Source: a bacterium
Lineage (GTDB): Bacteria > Patescibacteriota > Patescibacteriia > UBA1558 > S5-K13
DNA: 29,635 nt
Reading direction: 5' to 3'
Assembly (NCBI GenBank): GCA_029555085.1
Contig: JAKPTO010000038.1
Location: 1 to 29,635, forward strand
In this document: piece by piece, positions 3,522 through 25,636 of the stretch
Numbering within the stretch: position 1 is the first letter of the stretch
How the letters are laid out: every line of letters starts with the position of its first letter
Position numbers and translations under genes: made by a program
Notes under the pieces: model-generated
The model's input: only the letters and a program-made list of their open reading frames with translations
Told to the model about the DNA's origin: nothing
Database searches by the model: none

Positions 3522-3857
3522 ATGAGTTATATAGAATATAGTAAAGTATCAGACGATCTTAAATACAAATATAGATTGTTGATAGATACAATAAAAGAAT
3601 ATGGTGAAAAACTACCGAAAAAACACGGATCATGGTATCGAGTGAAGGCATTTGACGATAACTGGCTTGTATATGATTCATGGAACGGACAGGTTTATTT
3701 GTATCGTAATGGTGCAGAACCATCTAGTCCTAACAACATGTATCATGTTGTTTATGTGTTTTTTGATAAAGACGGAAAAGTTAATAATTATTCGACAGTT
3801 GAACCACATATGGCAGATTTTTGGAGAGCACATATTATAAAAAAAAAACAAAATTAA
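3522..3857 (+). CDS. hypothetical protein
   Basis: 111-aa ORF in operon-like packing. Confidence 0.7.
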   Translation: MSYIEYSKVSDDLKYKYRLLIDTIKEYGEKLPKKHGSWYRVKAFDDNWLVYDSWNGQVYLYRNGAEPSSPNNMYHVVYVFFDKDGKVNNYSTVEPHMADFWRAHIIKKKQN

Positions 3858-3858
3858 A

Positions 3859-5766
3859 ATGAACACCGAACTTCTTGAACGAATTGAAAATAAAAAAGCA
3901 AAACTTGAAGATGTTAAAATTGCCTTGAAAGAAAAATTTATTGGTATTGATGATGTTATTGATAAAGTAATTAATAATATTTCTTTATGGTATTTAACAC
4001 CAGAAATCCAATTTAAACCATTAATTATATCATTATGGGGTATTACTGGTGTAGGTAAAACCGATCTAGTTCGTACTCTGGTTCGTCTTTTGAATTTTAC
4101 AGATAAGTTCATTGAAATTCAAATGGATGTGAAAAATGAATATAGTCGAACAATTGAAAGTTATTTAGATAATAGTGGTATTGAATCAAACGAGCCGGCA
4201 ATACTATTACTTGATGAAATTCAAAGATATCGTACAATTGATGAAGCTGGCCGTATGATTGAAAATAAATATTTTAACGATGTTTGGGTTCTACTTTCAG
4301 ATGGAAGATTTCAAAACAATTCTCGTCGTAGAGCTGATTTGATTCAAATGTTGATGGAAGAAATGTATTGGATAGATAGAAGCGATGATGATAATAACGA
4401 TAAAGATACACCAAACATAGAAACCGAAAACCCCAAAAAAAATAAAATTTATAAATATCACACATCATACTGGACTGCAAGTAGATTTAAAAAAATGTTA
4501 AATCTACAAATGTCTACTGAAGAAATTATGAAAATGACATTAGGGGAAAGAATGAAAATCATGGAAGACACTCTTAAAATTGGAAATGTCAATGAGGGAA
4601 AATCATACGAAAAACTTTTGATTTTTATTTCTGGAAACATTGATAGCGCATTTAAAATGTCTGATGATGTTGAAGATAGTGAAACTGATGCTGATGTATA
4701 TCATGAATTATCAAAAAGAGTTAATATTGTAAAAATAAAAACCGCGTTGGCCACACAATTTAAGCCCGAACAAATTGCTAGATTTGGTAATAATCATATA
4801 ATATATCCTTGTTTGGACAAAAAAAGTTATTATACTATTATTAAAAAAAATTGTCAACAAATTTTAGATAGAATTAAAAAAGAACATCATATTGTAATTA
4901 CACTATCTGATACAATTTATGATATAATATATCGTAATGGTGTATTTCCAACACAAGGGGTTAGACCCGCAATTTCTACTGTTTTTAATGTTCTTGGTAG
5001 TAATCTACCTTATTTTATGTATCATGCACTTATAAATGATGTAGACTCGTTTTATTTGGATTATAAAAACAAAAAATTATTTTCAACAATAAATGGTAGT
5101 AAAATTTCTAAGGAAATTATCTTGGATTTGGATATTATTCGTGAAAATAAGTCCATTGATGAAAAAATGCTCATAACTGTTCATGAATTGGGTCATGCAT
5201 TAGTATACGCATTACTTTATAAAACACCACCCAAACAAATAAACATTAATAGTTCTGGTCTTTCAGACGGGTTTGTTATTAATCACAGTGCGGTTGATAA
5301 TAAAACTTTCATAAGGAATCAGATTGCCATTTATTTGGCTGGACAAGCAGCGGAAGAATTGGTGTTTGGTGAAAATTTTAAATCTAGTGGTGCCTCAGCA
5401 GATATTACATTTGCTACCGATGTTGCTGGTAGATATGTTAGGGTATATGGAATGAATGGTACCGTATCAAGAATTGACAGAGAAGTGCAATCAACGTCAT
5501 TCCATATGAATTATGATGTTGATGCTACTAATATTGAAATTGAAAAAATTCTATCTGAAGAAAAGAAAAGAGCCACAGATTTATTAAATAAAAATATAAA
5601 AGTTTATAAGGAACTTATTCGTTTTACAATTACCACAAACGATATTACTATTAATGACTTTCTCATTATTTGTAATAATTTTGATATGGGTATTGTACCA
5701 AAAGAAATTAATGAAAAATTAATTTATTCATATGATGAAAAAGTCAGACATTTTTTAGAGCAATGA
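3859..5766 (+). CDS. AAA+ ATPase fused to an M41 (FtsH-type) zinc peptidase domain, no transmembrane segment
   Basis: Walker A GITGVGKT, Walker B LLLDE, Clp-like FKPEQIARFG; C-terminal HELGHA, LAGQAAEELVFG, GASAD and YGM motifs of peptidase M41. Confidence 0.85.
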   Translation: MNTELLERIENKKAKLEDVKIALKEKFIGIDDVIDKVINNISLWYLTPEIQFKPLIISLWGITGVGKTDLVRTLVRLLNFTDKFIEIQMDVKNEYSRTIESYLDNSGIESNEPAILLLDEIQRYRTIDEAGRMIENKYFNDVWVLLSDGRFQNNSRRRADLIQMLMEEMYWIDRSDDDNNDKDTPNIETENPKKNKIYKYHTSYWTASRFKKMLNLQMSTEEIMKMTLGERMKIMEDTLKIGNVNEGKSYEKLLIFISGNIDSAFKMSDDVEDSETDADVYHELSKRVNIVKIKTALATQFKPEQIARFGNNHIIYPCLDKKSYYTIIKKNCQQILDRIKKEHHIVITLSDTIYDIIYRNGVFPTQGVRPAISTVFNVLGSNLPYFMYHALINDVDSFYLDYKNKKLFSTINGSKISKEIILDLDIIRENKSIDEKMLITVHELGHALVYALLYKTPPKQININSSGLSDGFVINHSAVDNKTFIRNQIAIYLAGQAAEELVFGENFKSSGASADITFATDVAGRYVRVYGMNGTVSRIDREVQSTSFHMNYDVDATNIEIEKILSEEKKRATDLLNKNIKVYKELIRFTITTNDITINDFLIICNNFDMGIVPKEINEKLIYSYDEKVRHFLEQ

Positions 5767-6316: not shown

Positions 6317-7200
6317 TGGGTGGTGGTTATTATTCATTAGAAAAACGCTCGTTTAGAGCAAGAACTTTGGGGTATACAACCAAAGCTACACATGAGATTT
6401 TTCAAAGGCGTTCAATTAATAACGCAATGAACCCTCATGGAATTGTGATAAGAGAATCACGTGATTCGGATGAACATCCCAATTCATTGTCAATCATATT
6501 AGGATTGGATGTAACTGGCTCAATGGGTACTATTCCACATTTTCTCGTGAAAGATGGATTACCAACCCTCATGGGAAAAATTATTCAGGGTGGTATTGTC
6601 GACCCCCAGATATTATTCCTTGCCATTGGTGATCATGAATGTGATGATGCACCACTACAGGTTGCTCAATTCGAATCAAGTGATGAACTGCTTGACAAAT
6701 GGCTTACCGATGTTTATCTTGAAGGTGGTGGTGGTGGCAATTACGGGGAAAGTTACCTTCTTGCGTGGTATTTTGCAGGATATCATACATCAATTGATTG
6801 TTATGAAAAAAGAGGACAAAAAGGTTTTCTTTTCACAATTGGCGATGAACCCACGTTAAAGGAAATACCAAAACATTATCTTAAAGCAATAATGGGTGAT
6901 GGTCAATATTCTAATATGAGTGCAAGTGCTCTTTTAGAAAAAGCAAGTGAGAAATATCATTGCTTTCATTTGCATATTAAAGAAACGAATGCTGGTAGCC
7001 GTCAGGAAACTATTAATGGTTGGAAGCAGTTAATGAGTGACAACCTTATCGTGGTTGAAAACAAGAATGATGTTGCAAAAATAATTGCAAACAAAATTCT
7101 CGAAATTCACGGAACAACTTCAACAATATTAGAAGAAAATTCCATGACAAAGCAAGATGTAATAACAAACGATGATAATAAAATCGATATTATTTTGTGA
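6316..7200 (+). CDS. von Willebrand factor A (vWA) domain protein
   Basis: MIDAS-like LGLDVTGSMG, AIGD, EGGGGGNYGESY and FTIGDEP motifs. Confidence 0.85.
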   Translation: MGGGYYSLEKRSFRARTLGYTTKATHEIFQRRSINNAMNPHGIVIRESRDSDEHPNSLSIILGLDVTGSMGTIPHFLVKDGLPTLMGKIIQGGIVDPQILFLAIGDHECDDAPLQVAQFESSDELLDKWLTDVYLEGGGGGNYGESYLLAWYFAGYHTSIDCYEKRGQKGFLFTIGDEPTLKEIPKHYLKAIMGDGQYSNMSASALLEKASEKYHCFHLHIKETNAGSRQETINGWKQLMSDNLIVVENKNDVAKIIANKILEIHGTTSTILEENSMTKQDVITNDDNKIDIIL

Positions 7201-8345
7201 TAATGATTGGTAAAGCAGTTATTGGGATTGGGTTTGGGGATGAAGGAAAGGGTATAACAACCGATTTTCTTTGTTCCCAATCCCGTAATCCTATGGTAGT
7301 GAGATTTTCGGGTGGACATCAAGCAGGTCATACTGTTGTATTAAACGGTGTTAGACATGTATTCTCTAATTTCGGCTCAGGAACATTACGTGGTGTGCCA
7401 ACTTACTGGTCTAAGTATTGTACCGTTAATCCAATTGGAATTATTAACGAATACAATAAATTAATAGATAAGGGTGTTATACCCAAACTTTATATTGATG
7501 AAAAGTCCCCGATAACAACACCATATGATGTATTGTATAATCAAACTGTTGAAAGAGTTAAATTACACGGTAGTTGTGGCGTTGGTGTTGGGGCAACTAT
7601 TGAAAGAGAAGAAAATTATTATTCTCTACTGTTTGGAGATATATTTTATCCGTCTGTTTTTAAAATAAAATTAGAGGAAATAAGGAAATATTATTCTTTT
7701 AAAGACGAAAAATTTTTATTCGTTGATGTTGATGAGTTTATTAAATGTGTTGAACTTATCAAAGAAAATAAAAATATACAAATAACTAATGGAATACCTT
7801 ATTATTTACCATATTCATATCATAAATATGACGAATTGATTTTTGAAGGTTCCCAAGGATTATTACTGGATGCATCTATTGGCTTTTTTCCCCACGTCAC
7901 AAGAACAAATGTCAGTACAAAAAATATCGTTGATATGGGTTATTCTCCAAAAATATATTTAGTGACAAGGGCATACCAGACACGACATGGAAACGGTGCA
8001 ATGACTAATGGGCATATTCCAAATAACATAAAAATTGATATTAACGAAACAAATCATAAAAATAAATATCAGGGTGAGTTCAGGCGTGCAATTCTTGATT
8101 TGGACTTGCTAAAATATGCAATTTGTAAAGATGACTATATAAGAAATCAGGCATACAAATCTCTTGTCATCACGTGTCTTGACCACGTAGTTGATGAATA
8201 TAGATTTACTTATCAAGGAGAAATCATAAATTCTCTAAACCAAAATGAGTTCGTGGAAAAAATCAGTAAGATTTTAAAAATCAATGATATCTATATCAGT
8301 GAAACAAATGAAGCTGATAATATTAAAAAATTTAAAAACACGTAA
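7197..8345 (+). CDS. adenylosuccinate synthetase-like protein (divergent PurA family)
   Basis: GFGDEGKG, RFSGGHQAGHT, FEGSQGLLLD, FPHVTRT, TRAYQTRHGNG and TCLD motifs; the substrate loops differ from canonical PurA. Confidence 0.85.
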   Translation: MIMIGKAVIGIGFGDEGKGITTDFLCSQSRNPMVVRFSGGHQAGHTVVLNGVRHVFSNFGSGTLRGVPTYWSKYCTVNPIGIINEYNKLIDKGVIPKLYIDEKSPITTPYDVLYNQTVERVKLHGSCGVGVGATIEREENYYSLLFGDIFYPSVFKIKLEEIRKYYSFKDEKFLFVDVDEFIKCVELIKENKNIQITNGIPYYLPYSYHKYDELIFEGSQGLLLDASIGFFPHVTRTNVSTKNIVDMGYSPKIYLVTRAYQTRHGNGAMTNGHIPNNIKIDINETNHKNKYQGEFRRAILDLDLLKYAICKDDYIRNQAYKSLVITCLDHVVDEYRFTYQGEIINSLNQNEFVEKISKILKINDIYISETNEADNIKKFKNT

Positions 8346-11640: not shown

Positions 11641-11804
11641 AATTAACTGCGATATTTTTTAAAGATGGTTATGGGTGGTTTAGAATTCTCGGTAAGGGGC
11701 TGTATTGGAAAGACATTAATCGTCATCCATTAATTTTTAGTGAACAATATGGATTTAAAAAAGTATTTACCATTGGAAAATGGAGAATTGGATTATTAAA
11801 ATAA
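11637..11804 (+). CDS. small hypothetical protein (55 aa, not in the ORF track)
   Basis: ATGA overlap with the previous stop; MKLTAIFFKDGYGWFRILGKGLYWKDINRHPLIFSEQYGFKKVFTIGKWRIGLLK*. Confidence 0.65.
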   Translation: MKLTAIFFKDGYGWFRILGKGLYWKDINRHPLIFSEQYGFKKVFTIGKWRIGLLK

Positions 11805-11836
11805 AAAATAAAATTGATTTTTTTTTTTCAAAAATA

Positions 11837-11868
11837 TTTGGTAATTTAAAAAACATTACTTATATTTG
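11837..11868 (+). promoter_or_regulatory. Bacteroidota sigma70-type promoter (-33/-7)
   Basis: TTTG 11837-11840, 20-nt spacer, TATATTTG 11861-11868. Confidence 0.8.
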
Positions 11869-11904
11869 TATTCTGAACATAACAATAAACATAAACTTCT
11901 CATC

Positions 11905-12843
11905 ATGAAAAAGAACTCACTCACACCGAACAAAGGATTAAGTCTTTCACAGGCACAATCAATCTCTAATCTTTGTTATCAAAAATCAATTGAAATCACT
12001 AAGAAATTTGAATCAATTAATAATGCCACCAAAATAGTTGAAATCGAAGGAAAGGGGGAGGTTGAAATAGTTAAAGGTCGTCCAATCCCATCTAATGTCG
12101 TTGATCTCATTAAAGAGAAAGCCGAACTTCATGCTTGCCAAGCATTTCTTATGGAAAATATTAAGGCAAAAGATGAGATGCTTTTAAATGCAAAAAACGC
12201 AACCGTTGATCTTAGTGGTATTGAAATTCCTGAACCGTGGGTAAATGAAGATCCGGTAATACTTCCCCCGGTAAACGAGGATTGGGGTTGGGAACAATTA
12301 TCTGTTTCTGAGATAAATGAATTTATTGAAGCAGAGGCTTATGCCGCACATATAGGACAATTTATTCATGGTGGATCGGTTCTTAATGAGTTAAGAGAAG
12401 AACTTCCTAATATACCTGACATTGAATGGATGGTTATTAAAGATGGTGAAAAGAGTCCGGTTATGATTAAAATTCATCACACTTCTGAACAACTTTTACA
12501 TATTCATGAACAACTAGCCGAGTTACACCGTGTTTACGAACAAAAGGTGAATTACTTTAAAGCTAAAGTTAAAAATTTGGTGACTAAAGAAAATGCTCGG
12601 ATTGCAAAAATTAATGCTGATGCTCAGGCTAATGCTGAAAAGATCAATAAAGATAGATATGAGAAATATGAGGTCGAATATGCAAAGGCAACTGAAAAGA
12701 TGAAGACAGCTAAAGCTAAGTTTGAACAAGAACGTCAGCGGGCTATCGAAGAAATCGCATCGATGAGAATAGAAGTTGATCCAAGATTTGTGAAAACTAT
12801 TGATATGTTTTTGGGTAATTCCCCCGGTCCTGGTTGTGTATAA
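11905..12843 (+). CDS. long alpha-helical/coiled-coil protein of unknown function
   Basis: Start moved to ATG 11905 because the TTG at 11866 lies inside the promoter -7 box. Long E/K/A-rich helical segments, especially in the C-terminal third. Confidence 0.85.
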   Translation: MKKNSLTPNKGLSLSQAQSISNLCYQKSIEITKKFESINNATKIVEIEGKGEVEIVKGRPIPSNVVDLIKEKAELHACQAFLMENIKAKDEMLLNAKNATVDLSGIEIPEPWVNEDPVILPPVNEDWGWEQLSVSEINEFIEAEAYAAHIGQFIHGGSVLNELREELPNIPDIEWMVIKDGEKSPVMIKIHHTSEQLLHIHEQLAELHRVYEQKVNYFKAKVKNLVTKENARIAKINADAQANAEKINKDRYEKYEVEYAKATEKMKTAKAKFEQERQRAIEEIASMRIEVDPRFVKTIDMFLGNSPGPGCV

Positions 12844-12844
12844 A

Positions 12845-13121
12845 AAAAAAATAAGGTGAAAGAAAGACAGAGCATGAGCCGAAGTTTTTCTTTCTTTATA
12901 CTTAGTGGTGTGGTTCTTTAAAATGTAACCTTTAGTTCTTCATCTAAGAATGATAGGCTAGAAGTTTATCAAATGGAAGTTAACGCCTCTTCCACAAATT
13001 AAGTTTTTTATTTTTTTAAGACTTAGTTTTTGTCTTTGTCATTGTGTGGAAGAGGGTCTTTGACCTTGACTTGGATTTTAACTGAGGCTATATACCACAT
13101 CACTAGGTGACTTATTTTTTT
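12845..13121 (+). ncRNA. candidate large structured ncRNA (family not recognised)
   Basis: Nested stems found by hand: 12845-12855/13111-13121 (11 bp), 12859-12867/12889-12897 (9 bp), 12900-12914/13094-13108 (15 bp, 2 G-U), 12978-12983/13078-13083, 12986-12996/13045-13055 (11 bp perfect), 12997-13007/13018-13028. G-U pairs favour the + strand. Confidence 0.75.
13029..13076 (+). repeat. degenerate hexamer repeats (consensus near YTTGWC) in two tracts
   Basis: TTTGTC TTTGTC ATTGTG at 13029-13046 and GTC TTTGAC CTTGAC TTGGAT at 13056-13076. Confidence 0.65.
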
Positions 13122-13136
13122 CATAAAAAAGTTAAC

Positions 13137-14111
13137 ATGCTAGAAAAGAGAAAAATAAAAGAATATGAAGAATTGGAAACCGTTGCTCTTACATGTAATG
13201 AAGAATATGTTTCCGATACATGTCAATGGGTTGTAGATGACAACAGTTTTTTTAGTATCGGTAAAACAATTCAACAACTTCCGCCAGGATTTTACAGTTA
13301 TATTTTTGATCATTCAATCAATAAAATTCGTTTAACAAGGATAAAAGTCATTACTGATAATATTCTTACTTTACCTGATCCCGTACTCAACAATATTTTA
13401 CTTGATTTTCAAAAATTCTGGGAGAATAGAGAGCGTTATCAAAAATATGAATTCGTCTATAAACGAGCATATTTAATGTATGGACCGCCAGGATGTGGTA
13501 AAACATCCTTAATTGCCTTATTATCCAAAGAATTAATAAAAAGAAATGGTGTTATCTTAAATATTAATACTGTCGATCAAATTGAGCTATATGACCGGGT
13601 AATTAAAGATATAAGAGACATTGAAAAAGAAAAGCCACTAATTGTTATTATTGAGGATATTGACGGATATACCGAATTTGGAAATATTTCAAGATTATTG
13701 AACATTTTAGATGGTACATATCAAACCGATAATGTAATTATAATTGCAACAACAAATTATCCGGAAAGGCTTGAAGAAAGATTTTCATCAAGGCCATCAA
13801 GATTTGATGTTCGTGTGCTTATTGATGTACCCTCACCAGAAGTTAGAGAATTTTATATAAAATCAAAACTTAAGCCAGAAGATCTTGCAAGAATCGATAT
13901 AAATGAATGGATAAGAAATACTGAAGGTTTTACTCTCGATCATCTTAAGGAATTAATATTGTTAACGTTTGTTTTGGATAATCCATTTGATGATTCACTC
14001 ATTCAAGTAAAAGAAATGATAAAAAATGTGAAAATAAAGAATGTTACAATTAAACGAGGATTACCTACACCCGTTGGATTTTCAAATCAGAATGAAAAAA
14101 TAAAACAATAA
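13137..14111 (+). CDS. AAA+ ATPase (classical AAA clade)
   Basis: YGPPGCGKT, IIEDID, LLNILDG, ATTNYPERL and SRPSRFD. Start moved to ATG 13137 because the GTG at 13107 lies in the RNA stem. Confidence 0.9.
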   Translation: MLEKRKIKEYEELETVALTCNEEYVSDTCQWVVDDNSFFSIGKTIQQLPPGFYSYIFDHSINKIRLTRIKVITDNILTLPDPVLNNILLDFQKFWENRERYQKYEFVYKRAYLMYGPPGCGKTSLIALLSKELIKRNGVILNINTVDQIELYDRVIKDIRDIEKEKPLIVIIEDIDGYTEFGNISRLLNILDGTYQTDNVIIIATTNYPERLEERFSSRPSRFDVRVLIDVPSPEVREFYIKSKLKPEDLARIDINEWIRNTEGFTLDHLKELILLTFVLDNPFDDSLIQVKEMIKNVKIKNVTIKRGLPTPVGFSNQNEKIKQ

Positions 14112-18097: not shown

Positions 18098-18183
18098 ATG
18101 AAAGAACCGAAGCACAATAAACAATAGGTTCTATAAGTGAAGAAACTGTAAGGAAATATATAGAAAATAAAAAGAATGCTTAG
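18098..18183 (+). pseudogene. tnpA: internally deleted Y1 (HUH) transposase remnant
   Basis: MKEPKHNK (from 18098) joined out of frame to TIGSISEETVRKYIENKKNA* (18121-18183), the typical IS200 TnpA C-terminal helix with the catalytic Tyr. Confidence 0.75.
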
Positions 18184-19330
18184 AGCCATCAAATATGAAC
18201 TTAATCCTACCAAGGCACAGAAAACCTTGATAAAACAATCTTGTGGTTGTTGTAGAAAGGTGTATAATGTGATGCTTGATAGGAAGATTGGTGCATATAA
18301 AAAAGATGGTACAACGCTTTCAGCATTTGAACTCATTAACCAACTACCCAAGCTGAAGTCTGAATTAGAATACTTAAAGGAATGCCCAAGTCAAGCATTA
18401 CAACAAGTAATCAAAAATCTTGATAAAGCATATCAGAACTTTTTCAGAAAAGGTGGTAATGGTTATCCTAAATTTAAGAAGAAAGGAATAAAAGATAGTT
18501 TCAGAATACCAGTTGCTTGTGCAATTGATTATGATAATTGGACTGTCAAAACAGCAAAAATTGGAACTATTAAAATATACAAGGGACATAACAAACAAAT
18601 TAAAGGAACAATTAAATCCTATACTATAACTCATACAAATACTGGTAAATATTTCATTTCAGTACTATATGAGACTATGGATAAACCTAAGTTGAATAAT
18701 AACAAGTCAGTTGGTATTGATATTGGCATTAAGGACTTTGCAACATTAAGTGATGGAACTGTGTTTGAAAACCAAAAACACTTGAAATCAAATCTTAAAA
18801 AATTAAGAGTATTGCAAAGAACTGCAAGCAGGAGATATCAAAAAAACAAAAAAAGAGAAGAACAGTCAAATAACTGGAAGAAGTCTGTAAGACAAGTTGC
18901 AAAATTACATGAACGCATTACCTTTCAAAGAAATGATTATTTGCATAAAATAAGTACATGGATAGCAAATAATTATTCTATAATATGTATAGAAACTTTG
19001 AATGTAAAGGGAATGATGAAAAACTATCATCTCGCACAAGCAATATCAGATTGTGGCTGGAGTAAGTTTGTTAATATGCTTGAATACAAATGTGATAATC
19101 TTGTCAAGATAGACAAGTGGTTTGCAAGTAGTCAGACTTGCTTTGAATGTGGATATAAAAACACAAACATAAAAGATTTGTCCATAAGAGAATGGACTTG
19201 TCCTGTTTGTGGAACATATCACAACAGAGATTTGAATGCTGCTAAAAATATAGAGAGGGAAGGACTATCCCTTTGTGGGCATAAAGTAAGTGGTTGCACT
19301 ATGCTTGCCCCAAGAACCCCACCACTTTAG
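18176..19330 (+). CDS. tnpB: TnpB RNA-guided endonuclease
   Basis: N-terminal HTH (GCCRKVYN), RuvC-I GIDIGIKDF, RuvC-II IETLNVKGM, zinc finger CFEC...CPVC, RuvC-III HNRDLNAAKNI. Confidence 0.95.
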   Translation: MLRAIKYELNPTKAQKTLIKQSCGCCRKVYNVMLDRKIGAYKKDGTTLSAFELINQLPKLKSELEYLKECPSQALQQVIKNLDKAYQNFFRKGGNGYPKFKKKGIKDSFRIPVACAIDYDNWTVKTAKIGTIKIYKGHNKQIKGTIKSYTITHTNTGKYFISVLYETMDKPKLNNNKSVGIDIGIKDFATLSDGTVFENQKHLKSNLKKLRVLQRTASRRYQKNKKREEQSNNWKKSVRQVAKLHERITFQRNDYLHKISTWIANNYSIICIETLNVKGMMKNYHLAQAISDCGWSKFVNMLEYKCDNLVKIDKWFASSQTCFECGYKNTNIKDLSIREWTCPVCGTYHNRDLNAAKNIEREGLSLCGHKVSGCTMLAPRTPPL

Positions 19331-21225: not shown

Positions 21226-21266
21226 TAAAAAGTCGCGCGATATATTTATATTAAAATGTGTGTATC

Positions 21267-22823
21267 ATGCGACTATTTTTTTTAACACGAACATTTTTAT
21301 TAACCTTATTATTACTTGTTTGTGGTAATTTAAATGCCACCAAGTATTTTATTTCTCCAAATGGAAGTGATGGATATAGTGGTACATCTGAACGCCCATG
21401 GAAAACATTATCATACGCAAGTACAAGGGTTGTTAGTGGTGATGTTATTCAATTTGTTAACGGTATTTTTCCGTATGATGAAAATGTATCTTATATACCG
21501 GCAGGTGTTAATATTGAAGGATATCCGGGGAAAACGATATTAATAAGACCCCGTATTGTCTTCATGGGGATTGGTGGTGACCAACATATTTCGGGGATTG
21601 TTTTTGATGGTGATAATGTTCCGAATCATAACGCAATTTTAATTTTACATAGAAGTCATATTAGAATAACTAATTGTAAATTTATAAATTTCAAAGATGG
21701 TAATCTATATTATGCGTCAAACGAATATAAATACGCAATTGAAATGAGATGGACACATGATATTGAAATTGATAATAATATCTTAGAATGTGGTATTCGT
21801 TCGTTATATGATAATCGTAATTTAAATATACACCACAATAATATAGGTAAGCCGGTAATGAATACCGAACCCGAAATTGGAATTTATTTGTGTGATGTGG
21901 ATTATGTTCGAATATGGAACAATAAGTTTAAAAATTTGGCCACATTTATAGAATTTTCATCTTTTGGTGAAACAAAACTCTTTAATATTTATGTTTTCTG
22001 TAACTTGATGATAAATTCGGGTGTAAGTTCACCAGATAAATGGGGTTATGGTTGTGGTGTTGACTTTGCAGGAACAACCAAAGGTATTGTACGAAATATC
22101 AATATTGTTAATAATACCATTGTTGGTGAACCAGATGATAGATATACCATGATTGGGATTTTTTTACCATCTGTTAATAATGCAAAACAAATAACAATCA
22201 TAAACAATATTATTTTTGGATTCCAATACGCATCAATTTTTGGTGCTGGTGAAGGCACTAAAATTGATTCGATTATTGTGGAATCAAATATTTTATATGG
22301 TAACGCAGTGAAAGATCGTACATACGCACCCAATAATTTACCATTTTTTCCTGATATGAGAAAACCAACAAATAGTATTCAACGAGAGAATATAATTGAA
22401 GATCCGGAATTTGTTGGAAACGGTGATTATCATTTAAAAACATCTTCACCCGGAATCGGAATTGGTATTTCTGTAGAATGGATCGATTCCTATCTTGATG
22501 GTGATAAATATTTTGGGTTAATAAATATTGGAGCATATAATGGTTATCCTGAGACAGACCCAATACCAAATTATGACCCAAACGATGGTCTTTTTATATA
22601 TCCGGTTCCAGTTGATGATAACATAACTGTTATTGTTACGGATCCAGATTTTACACCAACACAATTACGAATTTATGATATGAATGGCAGAGAAATATTA
22701 TATATAAGAATGACATCAGAAACTATTTTAAATTATCCAGTTAATTTATTACCTGGTATTTATTTGGTAAAAGTGACAAACGATAATAATAATATATTGG
22801 TGAAAAAAATAGTTACGAAATGA
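21267..22823 (+). CDS. right-handed beta-helix (pectin-lyase-like) protein with signal peptide and T9SS type A C-terminal sorting domain
   Basis: Signal peptide ending LNA/TKYFISPNGSD...PWKT (DUF1565-like), IxNNxI repeats, DPEFV...DYHLKTSSPGI, and a C-terminal IYPVPV...IYDMNGREI...LLPGIYLVKV...KKIVTK. Confidence 0.85.
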   Translation: MRLFFLTRTFLLTLLLLVCGNLNATKYFISPNGSDGYSGTSERPWKTLSYASTRVVSGDVIQFVNGIFPYDENVSYIPAGVNIEGYPGKTILIRPRIVFMGIGGDQHISGIVFDGDNVPNHNAILILHRSHIRITNCKFINFKDGNLYYASNEYKYAIEMRWTHDIEIDNNILECGIRSLYDNRNLNIHHNNIGKPVMNTEPEIGIYLCDVDYVRIWNNKFKNLATFIEFSSFGETKLFNIYVFCNLMINSGVSSPDKWGYGCGVDFAGTTKGIVRNINIVNNTIVGEPDDRYTMIGIFLPSVNNAKQITIINNIIFGFQYASIFGAGEGTKIDSIIVESNILYGNAVKDRTYAPNNLPFFPDMRKPTNSIQRENIIEDPEFVGNGDYHLKTSSPGIGIGISVEWIDSYLDGDKYFGLINIGAYNGYPETDPIPNYDPNDGLFIYPVPVDDNITVIVTDPDFTPTQLRIYDMNGREILYIRMTSETILNYPVNLLPGIYLVKVTNDNNNILVKKIVTK

Positions 22824-23690: not shown

Positions 23691-23909
23691 ATGAAAAAAT
23701 CCTATACCAAATATCTTATTGAAGATTCTGTGCCCGATCTTCAAAAAATAATACCCCAAAAACGAGGTTTAAGAGAAATCACAATTGTGGTAATGATACC
23801 AACAGCAATAGTTGGTCTTGGCGTAATGTCGATGATGTTACCCATGACGATGACTATTGATAGTTACAAAAATTTAAAGGACCAATATAAAATTAAAATC
23901 AACAAATGA
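23691..23909 (+). CDS. small membrane protein
   Basis: ATG at 23691; one hydrophobic segment; overlaps the sigma factor start. Confidence 0.55.
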   Translation: MKKSYTKYLIEDSVPDLQKIIPQKRGLREITIVVMIPTAIVGLGVMSMMLPMTMTIDSYKNLKDQYKIKINK

Positions 23910-24433
23910 ATGAACACGAATTAGTTGCTGCAGCTAAAAGACGCGAAAATTCTGCATTTACTACTATAATGAAAAGATATCAAAGTCAAATGTATTATAT
24001 GATATATAATATGGTAAATGATCGAACACTTGCTGAAGATTTAACCATGGAAGTTTTTGAAAAATGTTTTCAAAAAATTGATATGTACACACCAACATAC
24101 AGATTAAGTACGTGGTTATTTAGAATAGGTCGAAATCACACAATTGATTACATAAGAACACAAGTAAAAAATAAACCTACATTTGTTGAGTTAAACAACA
24201 CATTTCATGACGGTAATTACACACCCGAGCAAGAGATGATAATGAAAGAGGATGATGTCAGATTAAATCTCGCGGTAAATTCATTAAAATCTATGTATCG
24301 GGATGTTTTTTTATTAAGATGTGATGGAGATTCATATCAGGAAATATCAGAAAAACTTGGACTACCTATTAATACCGTAAAAATTCGGCTTAAAAGAGGA
24401 AGAGAACAATTAGAAAAAAAATTAATATTATAA
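23906..24433 (+). CDS. ECF-type RNA polymerase sigma-70 factor
   Basis: Region 2 AEDLTMEVFEK...LSTWLFRIGRNHTIDYIR; region 4 SYQEISEKLGLPINTVKIRLKRGR. Confidence 0.92.
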   Translation: MNEHELVAAAKRRENSAFTTIMKRYQSQMYYMIYNMVNDRTLAEDLTMEVFEKCFQKIDMYTPTYRLSTWLFRIGRNHTIDYIRTQVKNKPTFVELNNTFHDGNYTPEQEMIMKEDDVRLNLAVNSLKSMYRDVFLLRCDGDSYQEISEKLGLPINTVKIRLKRGREQLEKKLIL

Positions 24434-24465
24434 TTTGGTTAAAAACGAAATTTTATTTATATTTG
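24434..24465 (+). promoter_or_regulatory. Bacteroidota sigma70-type promoter (-33/-7)
   Basis: TTTG 24434-24437, 20-nt spacer, TATATTTG 24458-24465, upstream of metK. Confidence 0.8.
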
Positions 24466-24490: not shown

Positions 24491-25636
24491 ATGAAAAAAT
24501 ACATAAGTTCGGAATATGTGGGGATTGGTCATCCCGATAAAATTGCCGACCAAATTTCAGACACAATATTAGATAAATTTTTAAGTGTTAATCCAAAATC
24601 AAGAGTGGCCGTTGAAACACTTGTATCTGATAATAAAGTTATTGTTGCTGGAGAAGTAAATAGTGATATTACAATTAGTGATGATGATTTAAAAGAAGAA
24701 ATTATTAAAACGGTTTCTAGAATTGGTTATAAAAAAGATATTCCATGTACTTTTCGTGAAGATAATCTTGATATTAGTATTTTTTTAAGACAACAGTCAC
24801 CAAATATACAGGAAAGTGTTGATAAATCTAATGGTACTATTGGCGCGGGTGACCAAGGTATTATGTTTGGATATGCAACATCCGAAGAATCAGCTTTTTA
24901 TCTTCCGATGCCATATGTGTTGGCCGCAGAGCTTCTTATAACATTAAATTTTAAAATCAATACTGGTGAACTTGACGGAATTTATACGGATAACAAATCA
25001 CAAGTTTGTTGTGTTTATGATAATGATAGGATATATATTGACAAAATAATTCTTTCAACATTTCATAATAAAAAATTAAATGTTAATGATGTTCGAAAAA
25101 TACTTAAACAAAAAGTAATAGATGATGTACTTAAAGGGTATGAACGATTTATTTTAAAAGATCATGATATTAAATTTCTCATTAATTCAGCCGGACCATT
25201 TTGGGTTGGTGGTCCTGAGGCTGATACTGGTTTGACTGGTAGAAAAATTATTGCCGACACTTATGGTGGTTTTGCACCACATGGTGGTGGTGCATTTAGT
25301 GGTAAAGATCCATCCAAAGTAGATAGATCTGCAACATATATGGCTCGACATATTGCAAAAAATTTAGTTGCGAATGGTTATTGTAATCACGCAACAGTAC
25401 AATTGTCATATGCAATTGGAGACACACAACCATTTAGTATATCAGTTAGCAGTGATCAAGTAAATATTGATAAATCATTAGAACAAAAAATTTTTGAAAC
25501 ATTTGATTTATCACCACAAGGAATTATTAATTATTTAGAATTAACAAATCCTTTACGAGTTAAATATAAAACAATCTCATCTGGTGGTCATTTTTTCGGA
25601 TTAAATACCCCGTGGGAAAAAATCATATCTTTTTAA
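24491..25636 (+). CDS. metK: S-adenosylmethionine synthetase
   Basis: GHPDKIADQISD, GAGDQGIMFGYA, DTGLTGRKII and GGGAFSGKDPSKVDRS signatures. Confidence 0.96.
   Translation: MKKYISSEYVGIGHPDKIADQISDTILDKFLSVNPKSRVAVETLVSDNKVIVAGEVNSDITISDDDLKEEIIKTVSRIGYKKDIPCTFREDNLDISIFLRQQSPNIQESVDKSNGTIGAGDQGIMFGYATSEESAFYLPMPYVLAAELLITLNFKINTGELDGIYTDNKSQVCCVYDNDRIYIDKIILSTFHNKKLNVNDVRKILKQKVIDDVLKGYERFILKDHDIKFLINSAGPFWVGGPEADTGLTGRKIIADTYGGFAPHGGGAFSGKDPSKVDRSATYMARHIAKNLVANGYCNHATVQLSYAIGDTQPFSISVSSDQVNIDKSLEQKIFETFDLSPQGIINYLELTNPLRVKYKTISSGGHFFGLNTPWEKIISF

Follow-up and report, generated by a model that had tools for sequence, protein, structure and literature searches.

The 29,635-nucleotide contig JAKPTO010000038.1, which we analyzed at its full length and refer to as the window, carries four adjacent features between positions 11837 and 14111: a promoter motif, a gene for a 312-amino-acid protein, a structured RNA directly behind that gene, and a gene for an AAA+ ATPase. 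A preliminary description of this locus had joined them in one co-transcribed ribonucleoprotein module. We find that the protein gene and the RNA form an obligate pair, present together in every testable locus in both directions of search, whereas the ATPase is a neighbor in this phage only and lies outside the module. The features, all on the + strand, are the following.

11837-11868, + strand: Bacteroidota-type promoter motif (TTTG, 20 nucleotides (nt), TAnnTTTG), 36 nt before the start codon
11905-12843, + strand: gene of the partner protein, 312 amino acids, with ATG at 11905 and stop codon at 12841-12843
12845-12855, + strand: 5' strand of helix P0 (A-run), 11 nt, 100% complementary to 13111-13121, with which it pairs; starts 2 nt past the stop codon
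12855-13111, + strand: RNA core of ∼257 nt, with an invariant GGU at its start and an invariant AC at its end
12858-12868 and 12884-12894, + strand: helix P1, a hairpin whose conserved loop contains a 2-bp helix
12899-12914 and 13094-13109, + strand: helix P2, a 16-bp long-range closing helix
12986-12996 and 13045-13055, + strand: helix P3, an inner 10-bp helix
13018-13044 and 13056-13093, + strand: near-invariant, UUUG-rich unpaired blocks
13111-13121, + strand: 3' strand of helix P0 (U-run), past the observed 3' end of the abundant RNA
13137-14111, + strand: AAA+ ATPase gene, ATG at 13137, with a PF00004 match (E 6.3e-18) over residues 113-230

The gap between the two genes (12844-13136, 293 nt) encodes a structured RNA with a conserved multi-helix fold. 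On the + strand it folds at -87.3 kcal/mol (z -6.17), as good a value being reached by none of 200 shuffles, and on the - strand at -65.1 kcal/mol (z -4.47). This fold, together with the 11-bp helix that opens at 12845, bears out the earlier statement that an RNA begins 2 nt past the stop codon. The + strand is supported as the sense strand by the better fold, by the many G-U pairs, and by the neighboring genes and tRNAs, which all lie on it. In 37 aligned homologues, 83.1% of the cells of the 53 proposed pairs are paired, compared with 64.3% in shuffled alignments (0 of 500 reach the observed value) and 38-51% when the partners are slid, and compensatory changes on both sides are seen in 51 of the 53. 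The covariation score is 0.571, against 0.245 for shuffles and at most 0.198 for slid partners, and mutual information calculated on 92 unique RNAs finds the same helices. The weakest helix is P1 (69.7% paired), because the alignment contains two registers of this stem. In P0, alignment columns 12 and 465 form AU in 19 sequences, UA in 15 and GC in 2, and the G-C pair between columns 13 and 464 is invariant (37 of 37).

Conservation is highest in the unpaired parts: the P1 loop, the GGU at the 5' edge, the AC at the 3' edge and the two UUUG-rich blocks are near-invariant, with pairwise identities of 75-85% in the unpaired blocks, 48% in helix P2 and 43% in the variable region. Across the family the RNA measures ∼257-390 nt, most members having a further domain, P4-P5, that is largely retained in 90 of the 92 unique RNAs. 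No Rfam family matches the RNA in the window, nor does any at E≤10 for the RNA of the window or of one relative (L016). GOLLD and ROOL models give no match at the gathering score in the window, and none over the RNA among the matches listed (the best 150 of 155, in 15 loci). No tRNA-like or tmRNA domain was found over the RNA by ARAGORN in the window or by Rfam. Two other identities were considered and rejected. A coding function is ruled out by insertions and deletions of any length, by the compensatory pairs, and by the lack of a + strand open reading frame (ORF) of at least 40 amino acids in the gap; the resemblance of the conserved core to an RNase P motif lies in a stretch that is one strand of a covarying helix, and Rfam reports nothing there.

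To quantify the linkage between gene and RNA, we used two sets of loci from IMG/VR. The protein-first set comes from a protein search that returned 91 stretches, 80 of which were retained, with proteins 46-61% identical to that of the window and contigs up to 434 kb in length. The RNA-first set consists of 104 loci found by scanning with a 26-letter degenerate pattern of the RNA core. In the protein-first set, a blastn search with the gap finds the 3' half of the RNA downstream of the homologous gene in 74 of the 80 loci, and a profile built from the 37 aligned copies finds the RNA after the gene in 79; the 80th locus ends at the gene, with no DNA downstream. In the reverse direction, 92 of the 104 pattern loci contain the RNA by profile, and the 12 pattern matches without the gene are not the RNA. 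The gene lies upstream on the same strand in all 83 testable RNA-first loci, nine others having only 11-463 nt of upstream DNA. Of 66 unique loci, 54 have the invariant GGU 0-14 nt downstream of the stop codon; in the remaining 12 the RNA is retained behind an insertion of 75-744 nt. The protein, with identities of 45-61%, is as conserved as the RNA. Both occur in one copy: five phage records of 246-434 kb, of which four are rated complete, each have the gene once, and the three of these five that the DNA query reached each have one RNA match. Clustering of the surrounding ORFs revealed no other conserved neighbor, the commonest being an HNH endonuclease (34 of 81 loci).

The suggested co-transcribed module is strongly supported for the gene and the RNA, which, besides being linked in every testable locus of both searches, are covered by unbroken contigs in RNA libraries (see below), and does not include the ATPase. 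The ATPase gene does start 16 nt after helix P0 with no Bacteroidota-type promoter motif in between, as had been noted, and sigma-70-like matches in the region stand at chance level (17 against 14.1±4.1). However, no ATPase homologue is found within ∼4 kb in any of the 80 protein-first or 104 pattern-first loci (0 of 184). The ATPase shows similarity to phrog_7485 (E 2.5e-31) and, in PADLOC, to the Ietswaart defence protein IetA (E 4.9e-14), and its only DNA relative among deposited phages is in LR756500.1, a 462-kb uncultured phage.

The stretch is present in 20 public sequencing runs, six of which are RNA libraries from activated sludge or digesters; four of these (X15 to X18) were examined as contigs, each of which has a single depth value. 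The 5' ends of transcripts cannot be read from such contigs, and contig parts without cover were not used as evidence. In X17, the RNA forms a separate 270-nt contig (12842-13111) with a depth of 4610, while the contig of the gene (11759-12871) has a depth of 15.7 and the next one downstream 5.7; the RNA contig is thus ∼300 times deeper than the mRNA contig. The break between them is a 30-nt overlap (12842-12871) beside the variable A-run. In this run the sequence passes into Illumina adapter after base 13111, which is the invariant C of the terminal dinucleotide, indicating that many fragments end exactly there. The RNA accumulates as a discrete species with the AC dinucleotide as its 3' end, and we infer its 5' end from the invariant terminal G-C pair. 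The 5' strand of P0 is probably part of the precursor only, and the U-run at 13111-13121 is probably a trailer and termination tract. In X18, a single contig (11885-13418) has a depth of 500, compared with 3-5 for its flanks, and in X15 and X16 the contigs with gene and RNA have depths of 16.7 and 9.2, compared with 2-5. In all four runs contigs cross the gene unbroken and extend at least into the RNA; those of X16 and X18 continue into the ATPase gene, indicating some read-through here. Compared with the window, the contigs from RNA lack one base at 11818 and one at 12842 and have an A added after 11847, all in homopolymer runs; these differences next to the module are strain variation or slippage in A/T runs.

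The partner protein is, as stated earlier, a mostly helical protein of 312 amino acids. An AlphaFold2 model based on 35 sequences is confident (predicted local distance difference test, pLDDT, 87.7; predicted template modelling score, pTM, 0.80), with a predicted architecture of two helix/beta-hairpin/helix units and a long antiparallel coiled coil. Foldseek against the PDB returned nothing at E≤0.001 for either the whole model or residues 1-200. A wide structure search (VIA) gave best Z values of 8.2 and 8.3 for generic helical hairpins and bundles, a range that the tool deems common, with prefoldin among the tied rows at Z 7.5; BFVD gave one uncharacterised homologue only, and the ESM Atlas no usable match. 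Pfam and PHROGs assign the protein to no family (0 in each), and NCBIfam and PADLOC to none above noise; ten distant relatives have no family match either. A profile search of the PDB gave 0 matches at E≤1, and tblastn against 50,697 deposited phage records found none. Thus, as modelled, the protein appears to have no known family and no detectable structural relative beyond generic helical hairpins.

Homologues of this protein are numerous: 2540 were found at E≤0.001 in a collection clustered at 90% identity, corresponding to 804 representative clusters at 50% identity, and those inspected (the best 120 of 2540) are 306-350 amino acids long and almost all unnamed. For two distant relatives, P0245 and P0215, IMG/VR yielded no locus. 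In a set of 185,579 species genomes, homologues occur only on four short contigs of metagenome-assembled genomes (2.7-3.7 kb) with unrelated labels, which are probably stray pieces of phage DNA and say nothing about the host. Prediction of a homodimer scored a control above the protein, and nothing is drawn from it.

Upstream of the gene, TTTG at 11837-11840 and TATATTTG at 11861-11868 are spaced by 20 nt, a pattern that we take to be the Bacteroidota sigma-A consensus. Motifs of the form TTTG-N17-22-TAnnTTTG are enriched in the window (9 found, 3.38±1.91 expected, 9 being reached in 0 of 100 shuffles), and six of the seven + strand matches lie in gaps just upstream of ORFs. The contigs of runs X18 and X16 start at 11885 and 11899, which fits a transcription start just downstream of the motif. 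These results agree with the proposal of a host-type promoter in front of the gene. In relatives, the motif is found in only 4 of 63 unique upstream regions, indicating that the promoter belongs to the clade of the window and not to the module, and ruling it out as a module part.

What precedes the gene in most relatives is an array of tRNA genes. These occur within 4 kb in 58 of the 80 loci, 47 of which have five or more, with 565 upstream and 20 downstream of the pair and not one on the opposite strand. The distance from the end of a tRNA to the gene is ≤150 nt in 15 loci, the tRNA most commonly being tRNA-Met (8 of 15). Judged from sequence, the window and its closest clade would have a Bacteroidota-type promoter in place of this upstream array. 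On the other side of the pair, the RNA is followed, among 81 loci, by genes for a phosphoesterase in 22, for an ATPase resembling polynucleotide kinase (PNK) in 20, and for an RNA ligase in 18.

Several of these islands have features of their own. One (L019) contains a suppressor tRNA whose anticodon is UUA, a group I intron immediately downstream of the RNA, and a GOLLD match of 306 bits (3849-3926, 5280-5467, 6534-6948), the GOLLD RNA lying ∼1.3 kb downstream of the RNA described here. Suppressor tRNAs with the UUA anticodon are also found in L028 (3671-3748) and L060 (3252-3326), a hint of stop-codon reassignment late in infection. In L042, a permuted tmRNA (RF04321, 53.7 bits), which ARAGORN also calls as tmRNA, lies at 1083-1235 inside a phage tRNA array.

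Taken as a whole, the results are best explained by a two-part phage module in which the gene of a conserved ∼300-amino-acid protein is followed, immediately behind the stop codon, by a structured RNA dedicated to it; we put the probability of this explanation at about one half. The pair is probably an undescribed phage protein-RNA module and a candidate ribonucleoprotein in the takeover of RNA or translation. Its position in relatives, between tRNA arrays and the genes for phosphoesterase, polynucleotide kinase and RNA ligase, indicates that it most likely acts in the RNA branch of takeover. We propose that a single transcript would carry gene and RNA, started by the host-type promoter in the window and by read-through from the tRNA array in relatives. 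The closing helix P2 and the flanking helix P0, formed by the A-run and U-run, would delimit a compact domain, and cutting or trimming of the 3' end of the transcript via P0 and P2 would release a stable RNA of ∼257 nt with a G-C end pair and an AC 3' end. With the ribosome finishing the protein 0-14 nt from the RNA, the protein could bind it, a putative step that would yield a stable ribonucleoprotein. Such a particle might serve the RNA side of takeover alongside the phage tRNAs and repair enzymes, and its candidate actions are the handling or shielding of tRNAs, the targeting of ribosomes, and the decoying of host defences that cut RNA.

A number of observations weigh against this explanation. 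The large excess of the RNA is clear in X17 only; it is compatible with the data in X18 and not visible in X15 and X16, where gene and RNA share a contig. The protein is mildly acidic (in 35 members, the isoelectric point is 5.4-7.2 and the net charge lies between -11 and 0), an unusual property among RNA-wrapping proteins; two stretches, residues 1-60 and 211-270, are nevertheless net basic. The tRNA and RNA-repair surroundings of the relatives are absent from the window, where ARAGORN finds no tRNA or tmRNA gene (0), and likewise from its closest clade (11 of 11 scanned loci, L001-L013). The RNA-repair neighbors may reflect shared descent in one clade. Finally, the RNA of the window is the shortest of the 92 unique RNAs and is without P4-P5.

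Some of these observations would be expected if the RNA were a cis-acting 3' element (a terminator, exonuclease block or stabiliser) serving high output of the protein, with the abundant 270-nt species being a stable decay remnant that has no role. The RNA does start immediately behind the stop codon, with a U-run at its other end, the depth of the gene's contigs in four runs is 3-100 times that of the contigs of flanking genes, and the acidity of the protein is in line with a role for the RNA in cis. No classical terminator hairpin was found in the region, so the structure may do that job. We nevertheless consider this explanation unlikely. A hairpin would suffice for such an element, compared with the seven to eight covarying helices and ∼65 near-invariant unpaired bases observed; the RNA is retained in the 12 loci where an insertion separates it from the gene; and the X16 and X18 contigs pass into the ATPase gene, so not all transcripts are stopped here.

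It is also conceivable, and in our judgment rather improbable, that the RNA acts alone in the manner of the cage-forming GOLLD and ROOL, the protein only aiding its making, processing or regulation, or sharing its transcript for timing. The acidity of the protein would be equally natural here, tRNA-Met is the commonest tRNA directly before the gene in relatives, GOLLD occurs in the same island in L019, and the tRNA-island setting is the one given for ROOL and GOLLD in the portions of PMC12286853 available to us. On the other hand, the RNA is 2-3 times smaller than GOLLD and ROOL, which have no fixed protein neighbor, whereas the pairing here is found in every testable locus, and the protein is conserved to the same degree as the RNA.

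The repeated UUUG motifs, several of them invariant and located in unpaired blocks, recall the TTTG of the host-type promoter and raise the question of a promoter mimic like 6S RNA, which would soak up host RNA polymerase and favor a phage sigma factor. The abundance of the RNA and a phage sigma-factor gene at 23906-24433 are compatible with this. But the UUUG blocks are retained where the upstream promoter motif is absent (the motif being present in 4 of 63 regions, ∼6 times the control level of 4 of 400), the 6S models of Rfam give no match to the RNA, and the multi-branch fold of the RNA, with three or more helices within the closing stem, differs from one long hairpin with a central bubble. 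Such a mimic would also give the protein no role, and we regard it as highly improbable.

Least credible are the two variants advanced in the preliminary description, a three-part module with the ATPase as remodeller and a type III toxin-antitoxin-like pair, both of which we discard: the gene order in the window and the read-through in X16 and X18, whose contigs extend as far as the ATPase gene, speak for them, but the ATPase is near the pair in 0 of 80 and 0 of 104 loci, and the RNA has no tandem repeats, follows the gene rather than preceding it, and is joined to a protein with no toxin or defence family above noise in Pfam or PADLOC.

The window is phage-like, with nearly all ORFs on the + strand and a Dda-like helicase among its genes. 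The window is a complete contig of 29,635 bases that was binned into a 1.02-Mb, 53-contig genome rated 99% complete; judged by its gene content, it is probably a stretch of phage DNA that ended up in the bin of a small bacterial genome. An ORF at 7197-8345 (+ strand) matches phrog_1211, a PurZ-type adenylosuccinate synthetase (E 7e-53), and this PurZ-like sequence suggests that 2-aminoadenine may replace adenine in the DNA of the phage. At 18176-19330 (+ strand) lies a 384-amino-acid ORF of the phage transposase family phrog_506 (E 2.8e-122), by its sequence possibly a TnpB-like gene, which may have its own guide RNA nearby, separate from the protein-RNA pair. A 521-amino-acid protein encoded at 21258-22823 (+ strand) has a C-terminal sorting domain of the type IX secretion system (PF18962, E 3.5e-9) and weak beta-helix matches; it is unusual cargo for a phage, and its sorting domain supports a Bacteroidota host. 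The sigma-factor gene (23906-24433, + strand) matches phrog_1740 (E 5.7e-28) and is followed by a complete S-adenosylmethionine synthetase gene (24491-25636, + strand; three Pfam domains), which has its own Bacteroidota-type promoter motif at 24434-24465.

It is instructive to compare the pair with known protein-RNA systems. Type III toxin-antitoxin systems like ToxIN have a tandem RNA repeat array and an RNA that precedes the toxin gene. In the gap (12844-13136), Tandem Repeats Finder detects no array, the only repeats being two-copy, imperfect and 13-22 nt long, and the RNA follows the gene. The protein has no Pfam, PHROG or PADLOC family above noise that would place it with the endoribonucleases ToxN, CptN or TenpN, and fold searches list generic helical matches only. 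Ro60 and Y RNA form a particle associated with the RNA-repair operon rsr-yrlA-rtcB. The module resembles it in combining a protein with a structured RNA whose 5' and 3' ends pair, beside RNA-repair enzymes, but Pfam detects neither a TROVE nor any other domain in the protein, no Y RNA model fits the RNA, and the repair genes are of the PNK/phosphoesterase/Rnl type and are found in only 18-22 of 81 loci.

TnpB and IscB form ribonucleoproteins with omega RNA, which derives from the 3' end of the transcript that encodes the protein. The likeness is one of arrangement, with a gene that abuts its partner RNA on the same strand and a structured RNA of similar size, and the location of the RNA at the 3' end of the gene is found here as well (in 54 of 66 unique loci, 0-14 nt separate the GGU from the stop codon). 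In contrast to these systems, however, no RuvC or other nuclease domain is detected (0 Pfam families), no guide segment is evident, and whole phage genomes have only one copy of the module, which therefore does not appear to be mobile. A PADLOC match to Cas12f (E 0.0077), in one of four family members scanned, covers the coiled coil only and is at the level of noise.

We also compared the RNA with GOLLD (RF02032) and ROOL, the latter being ∼600 nt long. In the excerpts of PMC12286853 available to us, both are phage RNAs of unknown function that are 'often near tRNA islands'; many GOLLD members have 800 nt or more, GOLLD env-38 lies downstream of tRNA-Met, and no protein partner is known for ROOL. 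As far as those excerpts go, the likeness lies in being structured phage noncoding RNAs at tRNA islands, often after tRNA-Met; this placement is found in 58 of 80 loci, and not in the window (0 tRNAs). The RNA described here differs in having no match to either covariance model, in its length of 257-390 nt, and in being tied to one protein gene. A 2023 survey of covarying intergenic RNAs (PMC10690425), which according to its accessible parts drew 8495 candidates from IMG/VR, may contain the RNA as an unnamed entry; in those parts, the full candidate list aside, we found no description of an RNA that consistently follows a conserved protein gene at tRNA arrays. Nor did we find the protein-RNA pair described in the literature searched; the candidate list of PMC10690425 may include the RNA.

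Each known family tested failed on a defining feature, and we rate the module as outside known kinds. It is smaller than GOLLD and ROOL and very common, with 2540 protein clusters at 90% identity and 804 at 50%, and, where measured, its RNA is among the most abundant phage transcripts. Because the RNA comes with a protein that can be tagged, the role of tRNA islands beyond supplying tRNAs becomes testable, and a protein without a structural relative together with a 257-nt RNA is a tractable target for cryo-electron microscopy. If the particle counters defences that cut tRNA, it would be an RNA-based arm of phage counter-defence. More tentatively, and somewhat short of even odds, we suggest that the pair represents a new phage ribonucleoprotein that is standard equipment of tRNA islands in huge phages, where it would have tRNAs or ribosomes as its targets or would block RNA-cutting defences; next to GOLLD and ROOL, it would be the third class of ornate RNA in these islands and the first with a dedicated protein.

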